Shown: positions 6,066-64,000 of the stretch, in pieces | How the letters are laid out: every line of letters begins with the position of its first letter | Numbering within the stretch: the first letter of the stretch is position 1 | Made by a program: the position numbers and the translations under genes | Assembly (NCBI GenBank): GCA_951813565.1 | Contig: OX638351.1 | Location: 3,264,001 to 3,328,000 of the forward strand | Length of the DNA stretch: 64,000 nt | DNA from: an uncultured Poribacteria bacterium | GTDB taxonomy: Bacteria; Poribacteria; WGA-4E; WGA-3G | Direction of reading: 5' to 3' | Notes under the pieces: generated by a model | Told to the model about the DNA's origin: nothing | What the model saw: the letters and a program-made list of their open reading frames with translations, nothing else | Database searches by the model: none

Positions 6066-6653
6066 ATGACTTATGTATCAGCGCGCAAAGCAAGTGAGCT
6101 GCTGGATTATACACCTGACCATTTACGGAGGTTGGCAAATGAAGGAAAGATTGATATTATCCGCACAGGAGGCGGACACAGACGCTATGATGTTGACGGA
6201 TACATCAAAAGCAAATCCAAATCAATTGCAACTGTTTGCTACAGCAGAGTATCCAGCACAAAGCAAAGAGACGACCTTGAACGACAAGTTGAATATATGC
6301 GAAGTATCTACCCCGCCGCAGAAGTTATCCGAGACATCGGAAGCGGTATCAACTTCAAAAGAAAAGGGCTTAGAACCTTATTGGAACGGCTTATGCAAGG
6401 TGATAAGCTCCAAGTTGTTATTGCCCATCGGGATAGATTCGCCCGGTTCGGTATCGACCTTATACAATACCTCATTGAACAAAACGGTGGCGAACTCGTG
6501 GTTTTGGACCAAACAGAACACAGTCCGCAAGAGGAACTCACGCAGGATCTTCTCGCAATCCTGCATGTCTTCAGTTGCCGGATGCACGGGCTCAGAAGTT
6601 ACCGTGACAAAATCAAAGAAGATAAGAGTTTATCCGACAACAAAACAACGTGA
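6066..6653 (+). CDS. tnpA: IS607 serine recombinase/transposase TnpA
   Basis: N-terminal MerR-like HTH (RTGGGHRRY); YSRVSSTKQRDDLERQ, DIGSGINFKRKGL, HRDRFARFG. Confidence 0.92.
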   Translation: MTYVSARKASELLDYTPDHLRRLANEGKIDIIRTGGGHRRYDVDGYIKSKSKSIATVCYSRVSSTKQRDDLERQVEYMRSIYPAAEVIRDIGSGINFKRKGLRTLLERLMQGDKLQVVIAHRDRFARFGIDLIQYLIEQNGGELVVLDQTEHSPQEELTQDLLAILHVFSCRMHGLRSYRDKIKEDKSLSDNKTT

Positions 6654-7722
6654 AACACTTCGGCAGTGGTTTGGCACAGCACGTTTCACTTACAATAAAA
6701 CCGTTGCTTTGTTAAACGAAACAGACATAAAAGCGAATTGGAAAGCGATAAAAACAGACATGCTCCACGATCTACCTGATTGGAGCAAAGAAACTCCGTA
6801 TCAGATAAAGTCTATTGCTATCCGAGATGCTTGTATTGCTGTCCGAGAAGCAAAGCAAAAATGTAAGAAAACAGGTGTGTTTCAATCTGTTTCTTTCAAA
6901 TCTAAGCGAAATCCATCAGATAGTATTTTCATGCCGAAGTCTGCCATAAAAAAACAAGGTGTTTACCACACCTTGCTGGGACACCTCAAAATGTCGGAGA
7001 CGCTGCCTGAGAATATCTGTGACTCACGCCTCGTGAAAGAGAATGATAAATACTATCTCTGTGTTTCCTATACTGTGACAACTCCGAAGCGAAAGCCAAA
7101 CGGAAGTGTTGTTGCTTTAGACCCAGGCGTGAGAACATTCCTCACATATTTTCATGAGCGTGGTTTCGGATGGCTTGGACACCATGCTATTAATCGGATT
7201 CAAAGACTTTGTTCACACCTTGATAATCTTTTATCCCGTGCAACTAAAGCAACTCAACAATCACGCAAGAATATGAGACGTGCTGCGAATAGAATACGTA
7301 AACGTATCAGAAATCTTGTAGATGAATTGCACCATAAAGTCGCGCGATACCTTGTAGATACCTTTGATATTATCTTACTCCCCACCTTTGAGACTTCAGA
7401 TATGGTGATGCGTGGAAAACGCAAACTACACAAGAAGTCTGCCCGACAAATGTTGACACTGTCGCACTACAGATTCAAACAGTTTCTAAAGCACAAAGCG
7501 AAAGAGACTGGATGTATCGTCCTTGATGTCTGTGAAGCATACACATCAAAAACAGTGTCGTGGAATGGTGAGATTAGAAAATCACTCGGTGGACGAAAGA
7601 TAATCAAAGATAGCACAGGACTCAAGATGGACAGAGACTTGAATGGCGCACGCGGGATATTCCTGCGTGCTTTGGTAGATGAACCCTGGTTACTATCTAT
7701 GAGTAACTTGCAAACCGTATAA
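6604..7722 (+). CDS. tnpB: IS607 TnpB RNA-guided endonuclease, rearranged-RuvC type; start uncertain (frame open from 6073)
   Basis: KSKKIRVYPT N-terminus; RuvC-I ALDPGVRTF; LLPTFE with P at the usual Glu; CEAYTSKT; RuvC-III DRDLNGARGI. Confidence 0.85.
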   Translation: MTKSKKIRVYPTTKQRETLRQWFGTARFTYNKTVALLNETDIKANWKAIKTDMLHDLPDWSKETPYQIKSIAIRDACIAVREAKQKCKKTGVFQSVSFKSKRNPSDSIFMPKSAIKKQGVYHTLLGHLKMSETLPENICDSRLVKENDKYYLCVSYTVTTPKRKPNGSVVALDPGVRTFLTYFHERGFGWLGHHAINRIQRLCSHLDNLLSRATKATQQSRKNMRRAANRIRKRIRNLVDELHHKVARYLVDTFDIILLPTFETSDMVMRGKRKLHKKSARQMLTLSHYRFKQFLKHKAKETGCIVLDVCEAYTSKTVSWNGEIRKSLGGRKIIKDSTGLKMDRDLNGARGIFLRALVDEPWLLSMSNLQTV

Positions 7723-9538: not shown

Positions 9539-10107
9539 CAGAGGCATTCAATTTTCGTCTAATTATCCGTTTTAGTCGAAAAGTTGGGACCTAAAAATCG
9601 TTCCCAAATACACGAATTGATTGTATTTTTCTTCTCATTTTATTGGAATCATCTCCTTAAAAAGTTACCATACGGTAACTTTTTTCATACCGTGGTAACT
9701 TTTTGAAATTCACTATAAACTCAGTATCTATAGGGGTTTATAGTGAATTTTTTTAAGTTTTATATTTTTCATCTGTGTTGAGGAACACGGGTTTCCTTTT
9801 GCTGAAGATATTTTGGTAAGTTTTGCGTTGTCGTCTTTGCATTTAGAGAGTTACTTATGATGTGTTTGGGGATCGGTTTTCTCTTTTCATACTGATATTA
9901 TACCTGTTTCTATGTAGTGATCAGAGGTTTTTGTGGCGTTAGGAACAATAGATATCCAATATATTGACAATAAGTTTGCAGGAAAAGTTGGGTTGATACG
10001 TTTTTTGCATCTTGGATGAGCGTGCATTTTGTTGTCAGCATGGTGGTTGACGCGATTTTTTGGAGTCTTAGTAAAGAAAGAAATGATTGGAGAATTGAAT
10101 GCCTCTG
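9539..10107. mobile_element. 569-bp non-autonomous element (MITE) with 18-bp TIR and 10-bp TSD
   Basis: TIR CAGAGGCATTCAATT(T/C)TC at both ends; direct repeat ATTCAAGTTA at 9529-9538 and 10108-10117. Confidence 0.8.
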
Positions 10108-10184
10108 ATTCAAGTTACAAACGTTTTGACTTCACATCTCTCTAATGATATACTAAGCCTAAATATGCTTTGCGACGATCAAAT

Positions 10185-16238: not shown

Positions 16239-16458
16239 TGTCAAATGATATAGAATGATGCCAGACAGAGCTTCAGGTCTAAGTCGTGCCTTACTTCAAA
16301 TTAAAATCAATCCCATGATTACCATTTACTCGTTTGTTGAGACTTGCTCCAATTTTCTTCAAAGAATTATAAAACCTATAATTTAGAAATATCTCGTAAT
16401 TACTATGCTATATTTTAGAATTATTTACTCACTCTGCACCCGCGAGGTTAGGAAACCT

Positions 16459-16776
16459 CCAAATCAAGAAATCAACGCTACAAATCATGGCGAATGCCAT
16501 ACGGGGAATGCCAAAGGGCATTCATACCGTTGATTTGGCGCATTCGTCTTGAGGCATTTGGCCAAATCAACGCTGAATACGCTTTTGGTATTCAGCCAAA
16601 TCAACGCAGCATGCGCCAAATCAAGAAATCAACGGTATGAATCATGGCGAATCATGTAGAATACCAAAAGCGTATTCTACCAAGCGCATTCGTCTTTAGT
16701 CATTCACCGGGTCCGAATGCCTGTTGGCATTCCCCGTCCGGCATGCTGCGGGTATGAATGCCATTTAGGCATTCCC
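16459..16776 (-). repeat. Array of nested hairpin micro-units inserted in a GTAG REP
   Basis: Host GTAGGCG|AGGTTTCCTAACCTCGCG (minus strand) is split by repeated hairpins with CGTTGATTTGG tails. Confidence 0.75.
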
Positions 16777-16899
16777 CGCCTACCGAGGGATGAAAGTGTC
16801 CATTTATTTCTATAATTCACCATAAATCGTATAATTCTTAACAGATTATTTTGAGAATATGCTACAATTCAGAACAATCCAAACATTAGGAGGCATCAG

Positions 16900-18132: not shown

Positions 18133-18288
18133 TAACCTAAGTTGCTACGGACAAGATTTCAAGCTTGCAGACATTGCTTTTTACTGAAAAACAAGGATTT
18201 CCAGCTAATTCTTATGCTTTCTTTTCTAAATCGGGGTTAGAAACCCCTCCTACAAGAGCATTCGCGATATAGGTAGCAACTTGGGTTA
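18133..18288. mobile_element. 156-bp MITE, TIR TAACC(T/C)AAGTTGCTAC, 3-bp TSD, carrying a GTAG REP
   Basis: TSD TAT on both sides; homologous copies at ~47098-47272 and 54468-54624 in opposite orientation. Confidence 0.8.
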
Positions 18289-18293
18289 TATTA

Positions 18294-20566: not shown

Positions 20567-21565
20567 ATTCTGTTTCCGCAAAATAATCTGAATCTACACG
20601 CTTGATTACGTATGTGTCTTTTGTTGAAACACCGACGTTGTGTTCTATCATAAGCTTCGCGAGTTGTTGTCCATCAATTAGAACAACATTCTTGGAACTT
20701 CTTTCCGCAAACTTTTCAGCTGATGGATTAAAATTCGAGGTTGTAATGAAAATGCCTTTCTGTGCTCCTTCTCCATCTAATGCCCCTACAAAATCTCGAA
20801 TTGGAGGTTCACCAGTGTTTGCCTCCCAACGCTTTGCTTGAACATAAACCACATCAAGGCCGAGTCTGTCTTCGTTTATGATACCGTCTATACCACCATC
20901 ACCACTACGTCCTACGGCTTCAGCATCTTCTCTTGAACCACCATAACTCATTTCAACTAGTGTTCTGTCTACACTAAAATTGCGATTCGTGTCAGTAGTC
21001 GGGAATCGGAGTTCCCTCCTAACAAAGAGGGGTGTTCTGTAGGAGCGATCTCCGAATCGCGACCTTTACCCGCAAAATTTCGGTAGACACTCCACTAGAA
21101 GGTGAATGACAAGTTTCTCAAAGAAAGCAGGCTTTTTGCTTTTAATTTGCTCTAAAAGTTCCTTTGCCAATTTATTGTGCACCTCTTGGTAAATGTCTTC
21201 AATGTCCTCAACGGTAGGTGCTACATCTTCTTGCTCTTCTTCCTCTTCAACAGGGAAATAAGGTGTTCTTAGTCCATCAGGTTGTTTTAACTTCCCTTTT
21301 CTTAAGAGATATCGAAAGGCAGCAGCAACTACGTCATAATAAAAAAGATCAATATATCGTCCACTGCTTTTTATTTTTGCGTTTTTTTGTTCCTCAGATA
21401 AATTAAAATACTTTGTTAACTTATCCGTGGCCCCAAAATAGTAATTCCTTCAGGTGGATAATCAAGTTCAAGGATTGCTTGTCTTACTAACTCAGGTGCA
21501 GGAAAATCTATTTGGTATCTTTCATCAGTTTCAGGATGAATAGCATTTCTTGCTACAGTTTCCAT
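20565..21565 (-). pseudogene. mrr: Mrr-family (type IV) restriction endonuclease, disrupted
   Basis: C-terminal GDGGIDGII...YVQAKRW...FITTS. Removing the MITE restores FEKLVIHLL|VEMSYGG. A further frameshift lies near 21435. Confidence 0.8.
20961..21094. mobile_element. 134-bp REP-bearing MITE with CTAG duplication
   Basis: CTAG at 20957-20960 and 21095-21098; imperfect TIR TGTTCTGTCTAC / GTAGACACTCCA. Confidence 0.75.
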
Positions 21566-24512: not shown

Positions 24513-24594
24513 TGACTGTAACGCGGTTTCTCTGTGTGCTGCTCTGAACGCATACGCGCATTCATAGCGTTGATTTGGGTTTCGCTCCGCTCTA

Positions 24595-25006
24595 CCCATA
24601 GGCGTCAATTTAAGCACACAATTACCAGATTGCCTCTTGTGGGAGGGCTTTATAAGCCCGATTTATATGTATTTATCGGGGTTGAAAACCCGCAGCATGC
24701 CACACGCGCATGCTGCGTTGATTTGGACAAATGCCAAAAAGCGCATTTGGCGGATTTTCAGCCCCGCAGCATGCCATACGGGGAATGCCAATAGGCATTC
24801 ATACCCGGCGAATGACTAAAGACGAATGCGCTTGGTAGAATACGCTTTTGGTATTCTACATGATTCGCCATGATTCATACCGTTGATTTCTTGATTTGGC
24901 GTATTCAGCGTTGATTTGGATTTAACGGCTTGGGTCTCACAAAATCGGGCTTAGAAAGCCCTCCCACAAGAGAAAATCCAACATTTTTTAAGTTGACACC
25001 TATGGG
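24595..25006. mobile_element. Composite MITE (TIR CCCATAGG(C/T)GTCAA(T/C)TTAA) holding a REP doublet and a micro-unit array (24693-24919)
   Basis: 19-bp imperfect TIR; inner inverted REP pair GTGGGAGGGCTT...AAGCCCTCCCAC. Confidence 0.65.
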
Positions 25007-26597: not shown

Positions 26598-26940
26598 GCA
26601 GGGTTATTTAGTTTTAAGAATTATCAGTTAATACGTGTTACTGAAAAGTTTATATTGTCCGTTGGGTTTCGCTCCGCTCTACCCATAAGTGTAAACTTTA
26701 GGATACACCTTCTTGTGGGAGGGGTTTCCAACCCCGCTGAATGCCTACACGCGCATTCAGCGTTGATTTGGCAGCATGCCATACGGGGAATGCCATAAGG
26801 CATTCGGACCGTTGATTTGGTGCCTGCCCGTTGCATGGCACGTCCTGCGCAGTGGCGGGGCACAGGGACCCCGCCCTACAGTGGAAAACGCCGCGTAATC
26901 ATTGCAAATTGAACCTATGTAACCAAATATTTACACACCC
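26598..26940. repeat. REP/MITE/micro-unit mosaic bounded by 20-bp direct repeats
   Basis: GTTGTCAAATCCGTTTAGGG at 26578-26597 and 26941-26960; micro-units at 26737-26820. Confidence 0.7.
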
Positions 26941-34050: not shown

Positions 34051-35140
34051 CAGGACTTACGCAATAATCAAAAATTGAGTTATACTATTGGATTATGATT
34101 TCATTTACACTTCCTGAAAAGAAGGAAAACCTATTTTCCGATTATTGTCAGTTTTTGATAGCAAGTGTCACGAATTGGACACAAACCTACTTTGCTGCTC
34201 GGACAGAAAAATGGAGCCACGATCAACTCAATCGATACCTGAGGAACGAAAACATTCCTTCAAGCGAACTCTGGAAATCTGTAAAACCGGACATTGAGTT
34301 TGATGAAGATGGATACATTGCCTTTGATGATGTCGTTCTCTCTAAGAAGTTTCAAAACAGATAGAAGCTGTTTACCATCAATGGAGTGGTAGCGACAAAA
34401 AAGTTATTCGTGGCATCGGTATTGTCACGTGTCTCTATGTCAACCCAAAAACTGGCGAGTATTGGGTCATTGATTATCGCATTTTTGACAAATCGCATGA
34501 TGGTAAGACCAAAATAGACCATTTACTGGATATGTTGCATAATGCTGTCTTGAAAAAACAACTCCCGTTTCGGACCGTGTTGATGGATGCTTGGTATGTT
34601 TGTATGCAAGTGATGAAAGCGATTGAGAAACTTTCCAAGGTTTACTATGCGCCTCTGAAACGAAACCGACTTGTGAATGATACGGATGGTGTTGAACCAC
34701 ACCAGCATGTAGAAGATTTATCTTGGACACAGACAGAAAAGCAACAGGGGAAACGGGTTCACATCAAAAACTTTCCGAAAGGGCATCAAGTGAAGTTGTT
34801 CCGGATTGTATCTGAAAACGGACGCACGGAATATATTGTGACAAACGATTTATCTCAATCGGATGCGACTGCGACCAAAAACGAGTGTCGGGTTCGCTGG
34901 AAGATTGAGCAACTTCACCGTGAAATCAAACAGGTTACAGGTATTGATAAATGTCAGTGTCGTAAGTTGCGTGCCCAACGAAACCATATTGCCTGTTGTT
35001 TTCAGGTCTGGGTCTGTCTAATGCGTGCTGCACGGAAAGCCTCTCAAACGATTTACCGACTCAAAGATAGTTTATTGGATGATTACATGCGACATCAACT
35101 CTCTAATCCTTCAATAATTTTCAAAACTGCGTAAGTCCTG
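34051..35140 (+). mobile_element. IS701-family insertion sequence
   Basis: TIR CAGGACTTACGCA / TGCGTAAGTCCTG; ATTTT duplicated on both flanks. Confidence 0.85.
34095..35134 (+). pseudogene. IS701-family DDE transposase, frameshifted near 34355
   Basis: SHDQLNRYL, AFDD, VLMDAWY, RWKIEQLHREIKQVTG split across two frames. Confidence 0.8.
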
Positions 35141-37152: not shown

Positions 37153-38310
37153 TTATAACATATTAACATGATTGTTCTTGCATTTATTTTTTGGATGTGT
37201 TATTGTGATCAGATGAAAAATAAAAAACATGGGGTTTCCCCTCACTTTTCAGTAGAAGTTCTGAAACAAAGGTATCTTGAATGTGAATGTCCTATTGAAC
37301 GGACGCACTGGCATATTATTTGGCTTCTTGCTGATACCACACATCCACGAACACCTCGCGAAGTTGCTGAGATTGTAGGATGCACGCCGGACTGGGTTCG
37401 GAAGTTGCTCAAACGCTACAACGCTGAAGGCGAAGCAGCTATGCGAGACAAACGCAAAAACAATGGACGCCAGCGTATTTTGGATGAAACACAGCAAGCA
37501 GCCCTTGAAGCTGCACTTTCTTCGCCTCCTGCTGATGGCGGTCTGTGGACAGGTCCGAAGGTGGCTGCGTGGATATCCGAGACACTCAAGCGTCCTGTCA
37601 GTGATGTGTCAGGTTGGAAATATCTCAAGCGTCTCGGTTATACTTTACAAACACCTCGTCCTCAACATCAGTCAGCTGCAACACCAGATGAGCAGCAAGC
37701 ATTAAAAAAAACTTAGGGAGCGGGTAGCTGAGCTTGAAGGTCAGCACCCGGAGAAATCGGTAGAAGTCTGGGCAGAAGACGAGGCACGCGTGGGATTATT
37801 GCCGGTTCATCGGCGTGTCTGGGCGAAGCAAGGTGAAAGACCGACAGCCTCGGTGTGTCCGTCATATAAATGGCTTTATGGTTTCGGATTTGTCCGTCCA
37901 CAGACGGGTGAGACCTATTGGCTTCTGATGCCGAGTGTGAGTGTTGAAGTGATGAACCTTGCGTTGGCAGAGTTTGCTCGGGATGTAAACCCGGAAGGCA
38001 AAAAAGAGATAATCCTCTTATTAGATCGTGCCGGTTTTCACACGGGTAAGGATTTAGATGTCCCACAAGGTATTGAGTTATTTTTTTTACCGCCGTATAC
38101 ACCGGAACTTCAACCTGCCGAACGGCTGTGGCCTCTGTTGCGAGAGGTGGTTGCCAATAAAGTTTTTAGAACGCTATCAGACCTTGAAGAAGTGCTTGTG
38201 AAAAGGTGTCAGTGGTTCTCCAAAAACAGAAAGAAGGTGCAAGAACATGTCGGTTTTCAGTGGATTTGCAAAATGGAAAACACAATATGACTTACGTTAA
38301 TTTGGTATGA
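37153..38310 (+). mobile_element. IS630-family insertion sequence; ends approximate
   Basis: Two-ORF transposase; imperfect terminal IR TTATAACATATTAAC / GTTAATTTGGTATGA. Confidence 0.7.
37213..38290 (+). CDS. IS630 transposase, ORFA (37213-37716) joined to ORFB across an A8 slippage site (37704-37711)
   Basis: HTH in ORFA; WAEDEARVG, LLDRAGFH, LPPYTPELQPAE DDE motifs in ORFB. Confidence 0.8.
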
Positions 38311-46531: not shown

Positions 46532-46819
46532 GTTAAGGTTTCCCTAAGCCATTGAAATTCGCCAAATGCCGTACACGCATTTGGCGTTGATTTTTAACGC
46601 TATTCAGTTCATTCCCACATAACTCCTACCTAAAACAAACTTATTTTTTTAGAACTCATATTGAGTAAAACATAAAGATGTAGTAAAATAGGGAAAGAAA
46701 GTCAGATAGTTTATGTCCCTATTTCCACTGGACATCCACATTTACTTTATGAGAGGTGTTATTATGGCAGACGAAACTCAAAAAACTCCGAGATACAATG
46801 GTATTCCAAAGATGGCGCC

Positions 46820-46994
46820 GACACACTTCTGCTTGGGAACTTTCACCGCTGAGAGCCTCAAGAACAACTTCGGCTTAAACTCGGGGGTGAAGTTTCTTCG
46901 TTTTCGTTTCGCCATCGGATACTCCTTTCAAGTAGATGGATATTATACCATAATCTTGTCTTAAAGAGTGGCCCGAATTTCCGGTGGCAGTACA
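46820..46994 (-). mobile_element. IS3-family left-end remnant
   Basis: Minus-strand terminus TGTACTGCCACCGG; RBS AAGGAG; frameshifted OrfA start MAKRKRRNFTPEFK..VVLEALSGESSQAEVCRRH from 46915. Confidence 0.6.
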
Positions 46995-47097
46995 CGCTCC
47001 TACAGAATATATGTGAACTTATTTACATAATTTACTATAATAGAGAACAGTTCATTATTCGTCAAATATCGTAGCGCAAATTTTTAGTTTGCGTCCT

Positions 47098-47272
47098 CCT
47101 ATTTCGCAAATGCTCTTGTAGGAGGGTTTCTAACCCCGCCAAATGCCAAACGCGCATTTGGTGTTGATTTGGATTTTAGAACAAAAAACATAAGAATCAG
47201 CGAAAAAGCCTTGTTTTTTCAGTAAAAGCAGTGTTTGCTAACTTGAAATCTTGTCCGTAGCAACTTAGGTTA
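47098..47272. mobile_element. Partial copy of the ~156-bp MITE carrying a 34-nt micro-insertion (47139-47172)
   Basis: Aligns to 54483-54624 except for the insert CCAAATGCCAAACGCGCATTTGGTGTTGATTTGG. Confidence 0.8.
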
Positions 47273-54467: not shown

Positions 54468-54624
54468 TAACCCAAGTTGCCACCTATTTCGCAAATGCTC
54501 TTGTAGGAGGGGTTTCTAACCCCGATTTAGAACAAAAAACATAAGAATCAGCGAAAAAGCCTTGTTTTTTCAGTAAAAAGCAGTATTTGCTAACTTGAAA
54601 TCTTGTCCGTAGCAACTTAGGTTA
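54468..54624. mobile_element. 157-bp MITE (empty allele), 3-bp TSD AAA
   Basis: TAACCCAAGTTGC...GCAACTTAGGTTA. Confidence 0.8.
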
Positions 54625-55332
54625 AAATAAGAAACCGATCGCAAGAACAAAAAGCACCTCTATCAAGTAAAAAATGATAAGCGTGACCGAAAAAATAGCA
54701 GATATCCAACTACATTTTGGTTTGTCTTTGTACTTGCCGAGATCCATATTGAAATCGGTGTCAGTTTGTTCTCTTATATCATCATAGACATGTCGGAACA
54801 ACCGTTCCTGCCAAAGAAAGTAACCATCTAAAATCCCACAATAGGAAGGAAAAGGACTAAAACATAATATGAATTTTGCATATCCTCCTTGGCGATTAAT
54901 ACCATTGCTGCAACGAGAATTACCATACTCCAACTTTTTAACAAGGAACTGTTCCGTGCCAAACGGTTAATTGAGGGGTGTGCATAAATATTTGGCGCAT
55001 CAACACAGACACGGACAGACGCCAGGTGCCGCTTGATTTATAGAAATGCGTTTGTAGTCGCGCAATTCATTGCAGTCGCGCAATTCATTGCCAAATCAAC
55101 GCAGCATGCGCCAAATCAACGGTCCGAATGCCTTATGGCATTCCCCGTGTGGCATGCTGCGCCTCTTTGAACTTGTGGACGGAAACCCACGGCGTGTGCG
55201 GACTACCTTTAAGCGCATATTTAACATCGGAATTATTTATGCACACCCCTCACGGTTAATTACAATTTGGGTCATTTTCAGATGCTTTACGACCTTTTCA
55301 ATACCGTTCATGGATTTATCATCCTTCACCAT
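54622..55332 (-). pseudogene. Small multi-TM protein gene disrupted by a MITE and a frameshift
   Basis: Reconstructs as KHLKMTQIVINR|LARNSSLLKSWS...LDGYFLWQERLFRHVYD. Confidence 0.65.
54972..55252. mobile_element. 281-bp MITE, perfect 19-bp TIR, 8-bp TSD
   Basis: TIR TGAGGGGTGTGCATAAATA; CGGTTAAT at 54964-54971 and 55253-55260; contains a REP with nested micro-units. Confidence 0.85.
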
Positions 55333-62715: not shown

Positions 62716-64000
62716 CCTACATTCCACAGTTGTTAAATCAGATTTTAAGTATTTATGTTATACCCTACATTCCGCAGTTGTTAAATCAGATTTTAAGTAT
62801 TTATGTTATACTGTTGTATCTTGAATAATAGGAGATGATACCATAACTGAACCTACTTTTACAACCCTACGCTTAGATCATCTTGGCATTGTTGCTGGTG
62901 TATGTGATCGTATTGACTTGATTGACACGATTGATACCTTTATTGGTCTAACGAAACGGAAAGTCTCAGTGGGTGAAGCTGTGATGGCAATGGTCTTGAA
63001 TGCTTTAGGCTTTGTCTCACGCCCTCTCTACTTGACACCTGAGTTTTTTTCTAATAAACCCGTGGACTTGTTGGTCCGGTCTCACCGCTGTGCTGCCGAT
63101 TTTTCGGACGATAGTCTTGGGCGTGCTTTAGATACTCTTTATGAAAACGGAGTTACCGAACTTTTTGCGATAGTTGCGTCCAAGGCATTATCAACATTTG
63201 ACATAGCCCATCGTTTTGTCCATCTGGATAGTAGCACGTTTAGTTTGCATGGAGACTATGATACCGAAACGGACGATGAACACGCCATTCACATCACCTA
63301 CGGATATAGTCGGGATCAGCGTCCGGACCTCAAACAGGTGGTTGTCCAACTCATTTGTTCTTATCGGTCTCAGTTCCCGGTATAGTTCAAAGCACTTGGC
63401 GGTGTTCCTCAAAGGTGGTTAGTTGTTTATTCCGATGCAGCGTCCCATCGTGAAGTGGCGACTTTGGAAAAAAAGATTGCCAAAGCACAGGGGGTTGCCG
63501 AGACATCCTTCAAGCGATTGCAGCATAAAACGTTTGACACCTATTCAGCTGCTGAAGCCGCTGTGGCAGATATATCCAAATCTTGGAAGTATCATCAACC
63601 TTGTGCCCCCATCATCTCTGTTCCACATTATACAACTCCGGGACGACCTAACAAAACGGATAAACCGACACACTTCCGTTATCGGATTGAGGGTAAAGTC
63701 GTTGCGAATGTGGAAGCAATTGAAAAACTCAAGCGCAGCAAAGGCAGATTTGTGCTCGCCACGAATGAGTTAGACACAACTTTACTTGACGATGCCACTT
63801 TACTTGATGTGTATAAAGCACAGAACATCTCTGTAGAACGCAGTTTTCGCTTTTTGAAAGACCCTTTATTCTTTGCCGCCAGTCTATATCTAAAAAACAA
63901 CCAACGCATCATGGCATTGCTGATGGTGATGGGACTTTCGCTGCTTGTTTATGCGCTTGCGGAACGATGGGTTCAAACCGAGTTGGTCAAACAAGAACAA
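62716..64000 (+). mobile_element. IS1634-family element with degraded transposase; runs off the window edge
   Basis: Left end CCTACATTCCGCAG; LDHLGIVAG, LGRALD, VHLDSSTF, YGYSRDQRPDLKQ, YKAQ..VERSFRFLKDP; start codon ATA, stop and deletion near 63385. Confidence 0.8.

Follow-up and report, generated by a model that had tools for sequence, protein, structure and literature searches.

Why does one copy of a MITE-like repeat carry a small hairpin that is missing from two other copies of the same repeat? In the window (the whole 64-kb stretch of DNA analysed, from the genome labelled G000), a 34-nt unit follows AACCCCG in the copy at 47098 (+) and is absent from the copies at 54468 (+) and 18133 (-), so the filled and empty alleles pointed out in an earlier note on this DNA are indeed there. 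The unit is very probably a real mobile insertion, and it belongs, as that note had suggested, to a very small mobile non-coding family which targets REP-like repeats.

The members of this family in Ca. Poribacteria consist of a hairpin and a tail, with a length of 33-36 nt. The layout is a CG, four variable bases, AT(G/A)C, a loop of 4-9 nt, G(C/T)AT, an arm, a second CG and TTGATT, in which a 3' arm of 4 nt defines class A and a bulged one of 6 nt defines class B. The units in the window and the repeats around them are as follows.

47139..47172 (+): focal unit of class A (symmetric stem, 8 bp); loop of 7 nt, tail TGTTGATTTGG
47138-47171 (+): focal unit in the equivalent register, insertion at C^G
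47118..47138 (+): GTAG-tagged hairpin of the host REP; the focal unit targets its 3' CG
47098..47271 (+): REP-bearing MITE-like repeat, filled copy, ends approximate
54468..54624 (+): same MITE, empty copy, target CG at 54523-54524
18133..18292 (-): same MITE, empty copy, target CG at 18232-18233
26737..26771 (+): class A unit of 35 nt, heading a tandem stack inside a GTGG REP
26786..26820 (+): class B unit (bulged stem), occupying the loop CG of the class A unit 26772-26785
24693..24726 (+): class A unit with a second, tail-less unit after it and then a nested stack to 24919
24544..24578 (+): degenerate class B unit
24836..24863 (+): U2 unit, from a related second family that has this hairpin core with the tail CATGA; lies within the 3' arm of another hairpin
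46562..46595 (+): old unit of class A on the downstream side of a PhyH gene, tail TTGATTTTT
16450..16780 (both strands): large nested stack of units
16504-16538 (+): class B unit in this stack
16562-16595 (-): class A unit in this stack
55091..55159 (-): class A unit in a REP; its loop holds a class B unit (55111-55145)

The four sister units described before (26737-26771, 24693-24726, 26786-26820 and 46562-46595) are all present, each after a CG on the same strand, while those at 16504, 16562, 24544 and 55091-55159 and two large nested stacks had been missed. The class A unit at 26772-26785, which holds a class B unit in its loop CG, lacks its 3' half.

For the filled MITE at 47098..47271, at least four more copies with 92-98% identity were found in the genome. 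To the right of the focal unit the filled copy reads ATTTTAG and the empty copies read ATTTAG, and this context with one extra T is common to six genome copies, so the focal site amounts to +35 and falls short of a fully clean insertion. In three other cases, a filled copy of the focal REP is identical to its empty counterparts apart from the unit. As the G flanking the unit could belong to either side, “after CG” and “between C and G” describe one event, and there is no duplication beyond this one ambiguous G; the claim of an insertion without TSD holds to that extent, with the reservation that the flank of the focal site carries an extra T. The 15-nt left anchor of the focal REP occurs 73 times in the genome, with a unit next to it in 10 cases and none in 63. 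It turned out that the 10-mer of the tail occurs 11 times in the window (0.24 expected; reached in 0 of 100 shuffles) and 562 times genome-wide, where most of its single-mismatch neighbours occur 5-50 times (the largest 153, 109 and 72). The neighbouring genes of the focal locus are ordinary (PhyH, WD40 proteins and tyrS). Besides, multi-copy fragments resembling truncated IS-family ends lie at 46812-46995, with identity up to 98% across the genus, and at 46652-46811.

To describe the insertions in the whole source genome, we peeled out TGG-type units, 370 of which could be removed precisely, including 24 that enclosed another unit. Most of the vacated junctions (274 of 290) read CG. Only 7 of the 370 peeled units lie in ORFs of at least 150 aa, though such ORFs make up 80% of the genome. 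When contexts from G000 and the fetched loci were pooled (427 in all), 280 had no empty counterpart and the remainder formed 72 site types. Exact insertion at C^G is the largest class among them (24 site types). The host T was changed to C in 6 and lost before G in 4, the core from CG to GATT was inserted exactly at C^T in 3, and the remaining site types lost 1-4 bases; host CT was thus the insertion point in 9 of 72 (6 with the T replaced by C and 3 exact). This mix of exact and base-losing junctions indicates precision at the CG end and occasional imprecision at the tail end. The unit is fixed at both ends, with at least 24 exact site types in unrelated flanks and 64 non-tandem site types, and the composition of the right flank beyond the tail is near background (121 collapsed sites).

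Units nest in each other and stack in tandem, and whole stacks recur identically. Collapsing reduces the 257 filled intergenic CG sites to 40 types, from which it follows that many copies probably multiplied inside amplified host repeats or MITEs and were not inserted singly. The second family, U2, has the hairpin core with a CATGA tail, is about 27-28 nt long and gives 113 pattern matches genome-wide; it inserts into the 3' arm of first-family units, replacing 1-4 bases. In another genome, at G023:C1:1044374-1044611 (L256), seven identical class B units stand head to tail, and no Y1 or reverse transcriptase match was found in that genome.

After TTGATT, up to three lineage-specific bases follow, which are TGG (355), CAC (96), CGC (30), CCC (27), TAT (19) and TCT (14) among 643 permissive matches in G000. 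A conserved 3' tail had been reported earlier, and this is right for TTGATT, the only constant part, whereas TTGATTTGG is not universal. All copies were counted by regex patterns, which means that degenerate ones are undercounted. When the flanking CG is counted in, a 10-bp stem forms in three class A units (z of -3.1 to -4.2), and the fold of the focal unit is weaker (z -1.7). The compensatory stem changes noticed before were confirmed by covariation beyond shuffles, the controls being ones that ignore relatedness. For 112 distinct stems, the class A arm positions are paired in 75 of 112 against 48.3 in shuffles and in 88 against 68.8 (0 of 2000 shuffles each), and the third class A stem position covaries beyond all but 1 of 2000 shuffles. 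In an alignment of 26 copies hand-picked for diversity, 92.7% of cells are paired and double changes number 26 against 8.4 (0 of 500 shuffles). Covariation of the flanking with the inner CG, the outer pair of the stem, is at shuffle level (84 vs 83.1 at the outer base), despite the existence of a CA...TG lineage there.

Target CGs are concentrated in repeats: of the 257 intergenic CGs that carry a unit, 241 belong to repeated sequence, compared with 13,793 of the 38,152 that carry none. Counted by collapsed site type, 33 of 40 are in repeats, and most of the other seven look like remnants of REPs or units. Seen from the GTAG tag of the host, units point either way. The two classes differ in target, since CG is followed by YG in 27 of 43 class B site types and in 0 of 20 class A ones (Fisher p=8e-7; 64 types with 1 tie, sites with another unit next to them excluded), where collapsing lowers founder effects and does not remove them. 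That class predicts target in this way is as expected of a DNA-guide mechanism. A search of the class B arm against the sequence left of the target gave no convincing match.

The hosts are not the same in every genome. In G001, most of the hosts examined are short AATCCGCG-type repeats, not GTAG REPs. For instance, at G001:C2:17000-36900 (L255), units lie within AATCCGCG-type short tandem repeats between paralogous genes, which we take to resemble Rpn- and Uma2-type nucleases. The small dispersed repeats (SDRs) of cyanobacteria occur in heptamer repeats, and the arrangement at L255 may be seen as analogous.

The orientation of units was also compared with replication and with genes. A replication-strand bias appeared in a first split (85 of 209; p=0.008) and did not persist under better definitions (101 of 209 and 107 of 209); the best bisection into replichores, which are poorly defined in G000, was equalled in 323 of 500 permutations. 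TGG-type clusters in G000 number 126 on the minus strand of the assembly and 83 on the plus strand, following no replichore boundary. Units showed no preference for the downstream side of same-strand genes.

In the scan of species genomes, Ca. Poribacteria account for 78 of 80 loci among the matches listed. Of 111 other genomes in the family to which the window belongs, 100 have the unit pattern, including all 39 of its own genus and 58 of 65 of a second genus, so the unit is family-wide among these sponge-symbiont Poribacteria. Outside this family, 4 of 64 genomes have it, with one match each. One of these matches, G088:C13:7959-7993 (L257), comes from a sister-family genome; it is a lone class B unit of perfect form, close to the end of an 8-kb contig, and may be there through mis-binning or transfer. 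Viral sequences gave 5 pattern matches, none with the flanking CG, and among the matches listed 1 of 120 viral loci is family-like, and doubtful.

Insertion polymorphism, which the earlier note had asked for, is seen at strain level. Of the metagenome loci (127 in all), 31 can be aligned to G000 at ≥96% along half or more of their length; 8 of these were inspected closely, and unit content differs in at least three of the 31 same-species loci. L399 has a unit where G000 is empty, although only one flank is covered at the contig end and the neighbouring unit also differs at three bases; L386 is without two nested U2 units present in G000; and the stack of L423 differs from that of G000. The differences in L399 and L423 could be explained by gene conversion or assembly error. 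Across species, orthologous intergenic regions are too turned over for scoring single insertions, except at the 46562 site. The unit there had been listed as a truncated sister of the focal one, and it proved to be old, not a fresh truncated insertion: its orthologous site is filled in 10 of 14 relatives examined, with varying loop contents. The family is therefore both old and recently changing. The unit at 46562-46595 lies directly downstream of a gene and keeps its T-rich tail in most of the 10 relatives, and it has possibly been reused as a terminator.

To find an enzyme that moves the units, we searched the genomes for candidate genes. There are ten Y1 matches in G000, of which five are IS605-type TnpA, two IS200-like and three RAYT-like, and a six-frame search gave no further Y1 homologue. 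The RAYT genes in G000, which lie near C1:242059, C1:5070821 (gene at G000:C1:5070797-5071330) and C1:3098010, are flanked by REPs of the kind that units invade. A Y1 gene is present in 104 of 111 family genomes, and a unit lies within 1.5 kb at 4 of 37 distinct Y1 loci, the inspected cases being inside that gene's own REP. No Y1 was found in G001, G010 and G023, which have 84, 140 and 189 unit pattern matches respectively; G023 is a single contig with 92% completeness. As G023 and G010 keep many REPs (187 and 125), the loss of Y1 there may be recent. In genus g1, the median is 103.5 units in 20 genomes with one RAYT clade and 47.5 in 20 genomes without it (p=0.003), and the corresponding values in g13 are 13 and 7 (p=0.09); these are raw p values that ignore kinship and assembly quality. 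REP counts track the clade as well (191 vs 67.5), so the RAYT effect may run through amplification of the hosts only. Sister families have the same REPs and the same RAYT clade, yet no units.

A gene for the enzyme flanked by the motif (Y1, RAYT, IS110 or RT) had been proposed as something to look for, and no gene recurrently flanked by units came to light: no gene family recurred beside units in the loci of relatives, and peeling of G000 gave no gene or large element bounded by unit halves. An origin from IS110 or IS91 was rejected, as neither enzyme (PF02371, PF04986) was found in G000, which is 95% complete, and the relaxase PF03432 was below the cut-off in 5 of 5 genomes. Reverse transcriptase matches exist in 16 of 36 genomes of the genus and in none of the unit-rich G034, G006, G017 and G012; Cas1 was not found in G017 either. 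In G000, a CRISPR array (G000:C1:3988991-3998027) is bordered on one side by cas1 and a stand-alone reverse transcriptase and on the opposite side by a cas2-like gene, and units flank cas1, with none in the stretch of the array examined. Another reverse transcriptase of 511 aa (G000:C1:811749-813284) is presumably of a defence type (Abi or retron-like).

The reading that we favour, tentatively and with somewhat less than an even chance, is that units are moved as single strands through cut-and-join in trans by a REP-associated HUH tyrosine transposase (RAYT). The opposite strand of the unit presents a conserved leader and then the hairpin, with both junctions after C. Recruitment of the RAYT would depend on the host REP, or on the leader and hairpin in the opposite strand of the unit itself, and the enzyme would cut after C at each end of the unit (C^C and C^G, as read in the opposite strand). 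The released single-stranded unit would then be joined into another C^G, and units would multiply further when host repeats are copied. Each insertion would leave a CG in place again, so that a further unit could enter ahead of the earlier one and head-to-tail stacks would build up; the CAC, TAT and TCT tail lineages would have started from imprecise events at CT-like sites. If the published cross-pairing rule is extended to the unit, a leader with AACG at its end would direct it to C|G and C|T, which are the targets seen most often. The sequences that are hit suggest the same enzyme, in that the CGs lie mostly in repeats and the host REPs are those flanking RAYT genes. The higher unit numbers of the g1 genomes with the RAYT clade and the class-dependent choice of target point to it as well. 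Against it stand the lack of a REPtron-style RAYT flanked by units, the unit-rich genomes without a Y1 match, the sister families that share REPs and RAYT clade and have no units, the absence of a detected replichore bias, the two orientations to the GTAG tag and the different hosts in G001, and the correlation with RAYT in g13 is weak. In the parts of the RAYT literature examined, no characterised RAYT cuts C|G; TnpA-REP uses the tetranucleotide 5' of the hairpin as its guide and makes single-strand cuts to either side of the REP, at C|T and, in one system, at C|A, as far as the available text of PMC8266576 describes, and elements of IS200/IS605 make no target duplication according to the available text of PMC3333891. 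We consider it unlikely, in turn, that the unit is a minimal DNA-guided single strand of 35 nt whose own arm picks the bases beside the target CG, moved by a RAYT borrowed from the host REP, as a parasite of REPs, or by an unknown enzyme.

Alternatively, the units might be moved by a different, unrecognised enzyme confined to this Poribacteria family, or by a repurposed host repair enzyme, which recognises the AT(G/A)C...G(C/T)AT hairpin with TTGATT. This lies on the unlikely side. It would suit the occurrence of units in 100 of 111 family genomes and their near-absence from 64 others that share REPs and RAYTs, the many near-identical units and the seven-unit tandem in genomes without Y1, and the second family with the same hairpin core, another tail and another target (113 pattern matches). 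However, neither a candidate gene next to units in the loci of relatives nor a large element between unit halves was found, and a single origin of the unit explains the family restriction equally well. An origin with no dedicated enzyme is quite unlikely; here founders would arise by template switching at hairpins, and copies by REP or MITE amplification, slippage and gene conversion. The collapse of 257 filled sites to 40 types, the identical recurrence of whole stacks, junctions that often lose 1-4 target bases with microhomology of 1-3 nt, and the unit next to the insertion in L399, whose three base differences are as conversion would give, all agree with it. Yet both ends are fixed (at least 24 exact and 64 non-tandem site types), where switching should drag variable flank along, and unit class governs target choice.

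Insertion of an RNA copy, a terminator-like hairpin with a U-rich tail, by a reverse transcriptase or RT-Cas1 is very unlikely. CRISPR spacers are of about the size of the unit, its 5' end is fixed with a variable 3' end, and G000 does have a reverse transcriptase beside cas1 and a CRISPR array; but the enzyme is limited to 16 of 36 genus genomes and missing in the four unit-rich ones named above, G017 shows no Cas1, no repeat is duplicated, the array stretch examined is free of units, and units do not prefer the downstream side of same-strand genes. The possibility that would have undone the claim of mobility is that the empty sites are deletions from a longer ancestral repeat containing the hairpin. 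Filled and empty pairs alone give no direction. Two sister families without units, however, do have one of the host REPs (in 11 of 11 and in 26 of 29 genomes), so the empty state is ancestral for that REP and the deletion explanation, to the extent that this REP is concerned, fails; moreover, the unit is found in many unrelated hosts and inside itself. Deletion is thus barely conceivable, and RAYT-mediated movement remains our preferred reading.

Among known systems, the closest by analogy appears to be the small dispersed repeats of Nostocaceae, of which SDR1-8 were reportedly described by Elhai et al. in 2008. These repeats are 21-27 nt long, have a structure backed by compensatory changes and nest in themselves, in minitransposons and in heptamer repeats; we know of no identified mobilising enzyme for them. 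The units resemble them in being very small, dispersed and precisely inserted, with filled and empty sites, nested copies and stems likewise backed by compensatory changes. They differ in phylum, in length (33-36 nt against 21-27 nt) and in target, which is a bare CG inside GTAG REPs, with subfamilies picking different targets. By size and host, the units are not members of the SDRs, a separation drawn from SDR descriptions and not from sequence. SDR5 inserts between the third and fourth base of HIP1 according to the available text of PMC4390886; further background is given in the accessible parts of PMC5861425 and PMC3116915.

The analogies with SDRs and with HUH elements drawn before are both supported. 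With REPs and REPINs mobilised by RAYTs, as described in the available parts of PMC8266576, PMC3333891, PMC3116915 and PMC3733652, the units share an intergenic hairpin of 20-50 nt whose stem has a conserved motif on its 5' side (in the unit, this holds for the opposite strand), hundreds of copies, restriction to a lineage and the lack of target duplication. In contrast, the tag of the unit is AATCAAC rather than GTAG or CGTC and its invariant flank is TTGATT; a GTAG, GTGG or CGTC tag is absent from the end of its palindrome. Units are singlets and guests inside REPs, whereas REPINs are doublets; no cognate RAYT is flanked by units, and the junction is C^G instead of C|T. The likeness to IS200/IS605 elements (IS608 and ISDra2) and their non-autonomous derivatives lies in the absence of terminal inverted repeats and of target duplication, the kept 5' target, the recognition of a hairpin and a target selected by a guide (available text of PMC3333891). 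Unlike them, the unit has one hairpin instead of two ends and no transposase gene; by eye, it shows no likeness to the ends of the resident IS605 elements. No lagging-strand bias was detected under three definitions, with replichores that are poorly defined in G000. Classical MITEs, for which the available text of PMC3733652 gives 70-300 bp, are larger, and the units have neither terminal inverted repeats nor target-site duplication. The available part of that source makes no mention of Poribacteria. The earlier note had called the family possibly undescribed. The general kind, very small mobile repeats, is already in print for Nostocaceae, while this family itself gave no match in an Rfam search of the window and no description in the full-text literature searched, a scope outside which most subscription papers lie.

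To our knowledge, no mechanism has been established for SDR-type elements under 40 nt. The family offers short substrates that can be fully synthesised, with exact ends, a two-base target, subfamilies of differing preferences and candidate enzymes in the same genomes. The available text of PMC8266576 states that the spread of REPs in vivo is unresolved; with such defined substrates, both this spread and the mechanism of SDR-type elements become directly testable. If the DNA-guided reading is true, it would provide the mechanism that is still lacking for the whole class of very small mobile repeats, and mark natural in vivo sites of cut-and-join by RAYTs. An enzyme that inserts a 35-nt oligonucleotide under a DNA guide without duplication would also be of interest as a tool.

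Besides the units, the window contains other multi-copy intergenic repeats common to relatives (9540-10108, 20954-21099 and 16459-16617). TnpB, pieces of DDE transposases and a DUF4277 gene are found at 6073-7722, 34532-35134, 37168-38290 and 62918-63385, and TnpB has about 37 copies genome-wide, which form three clusters.
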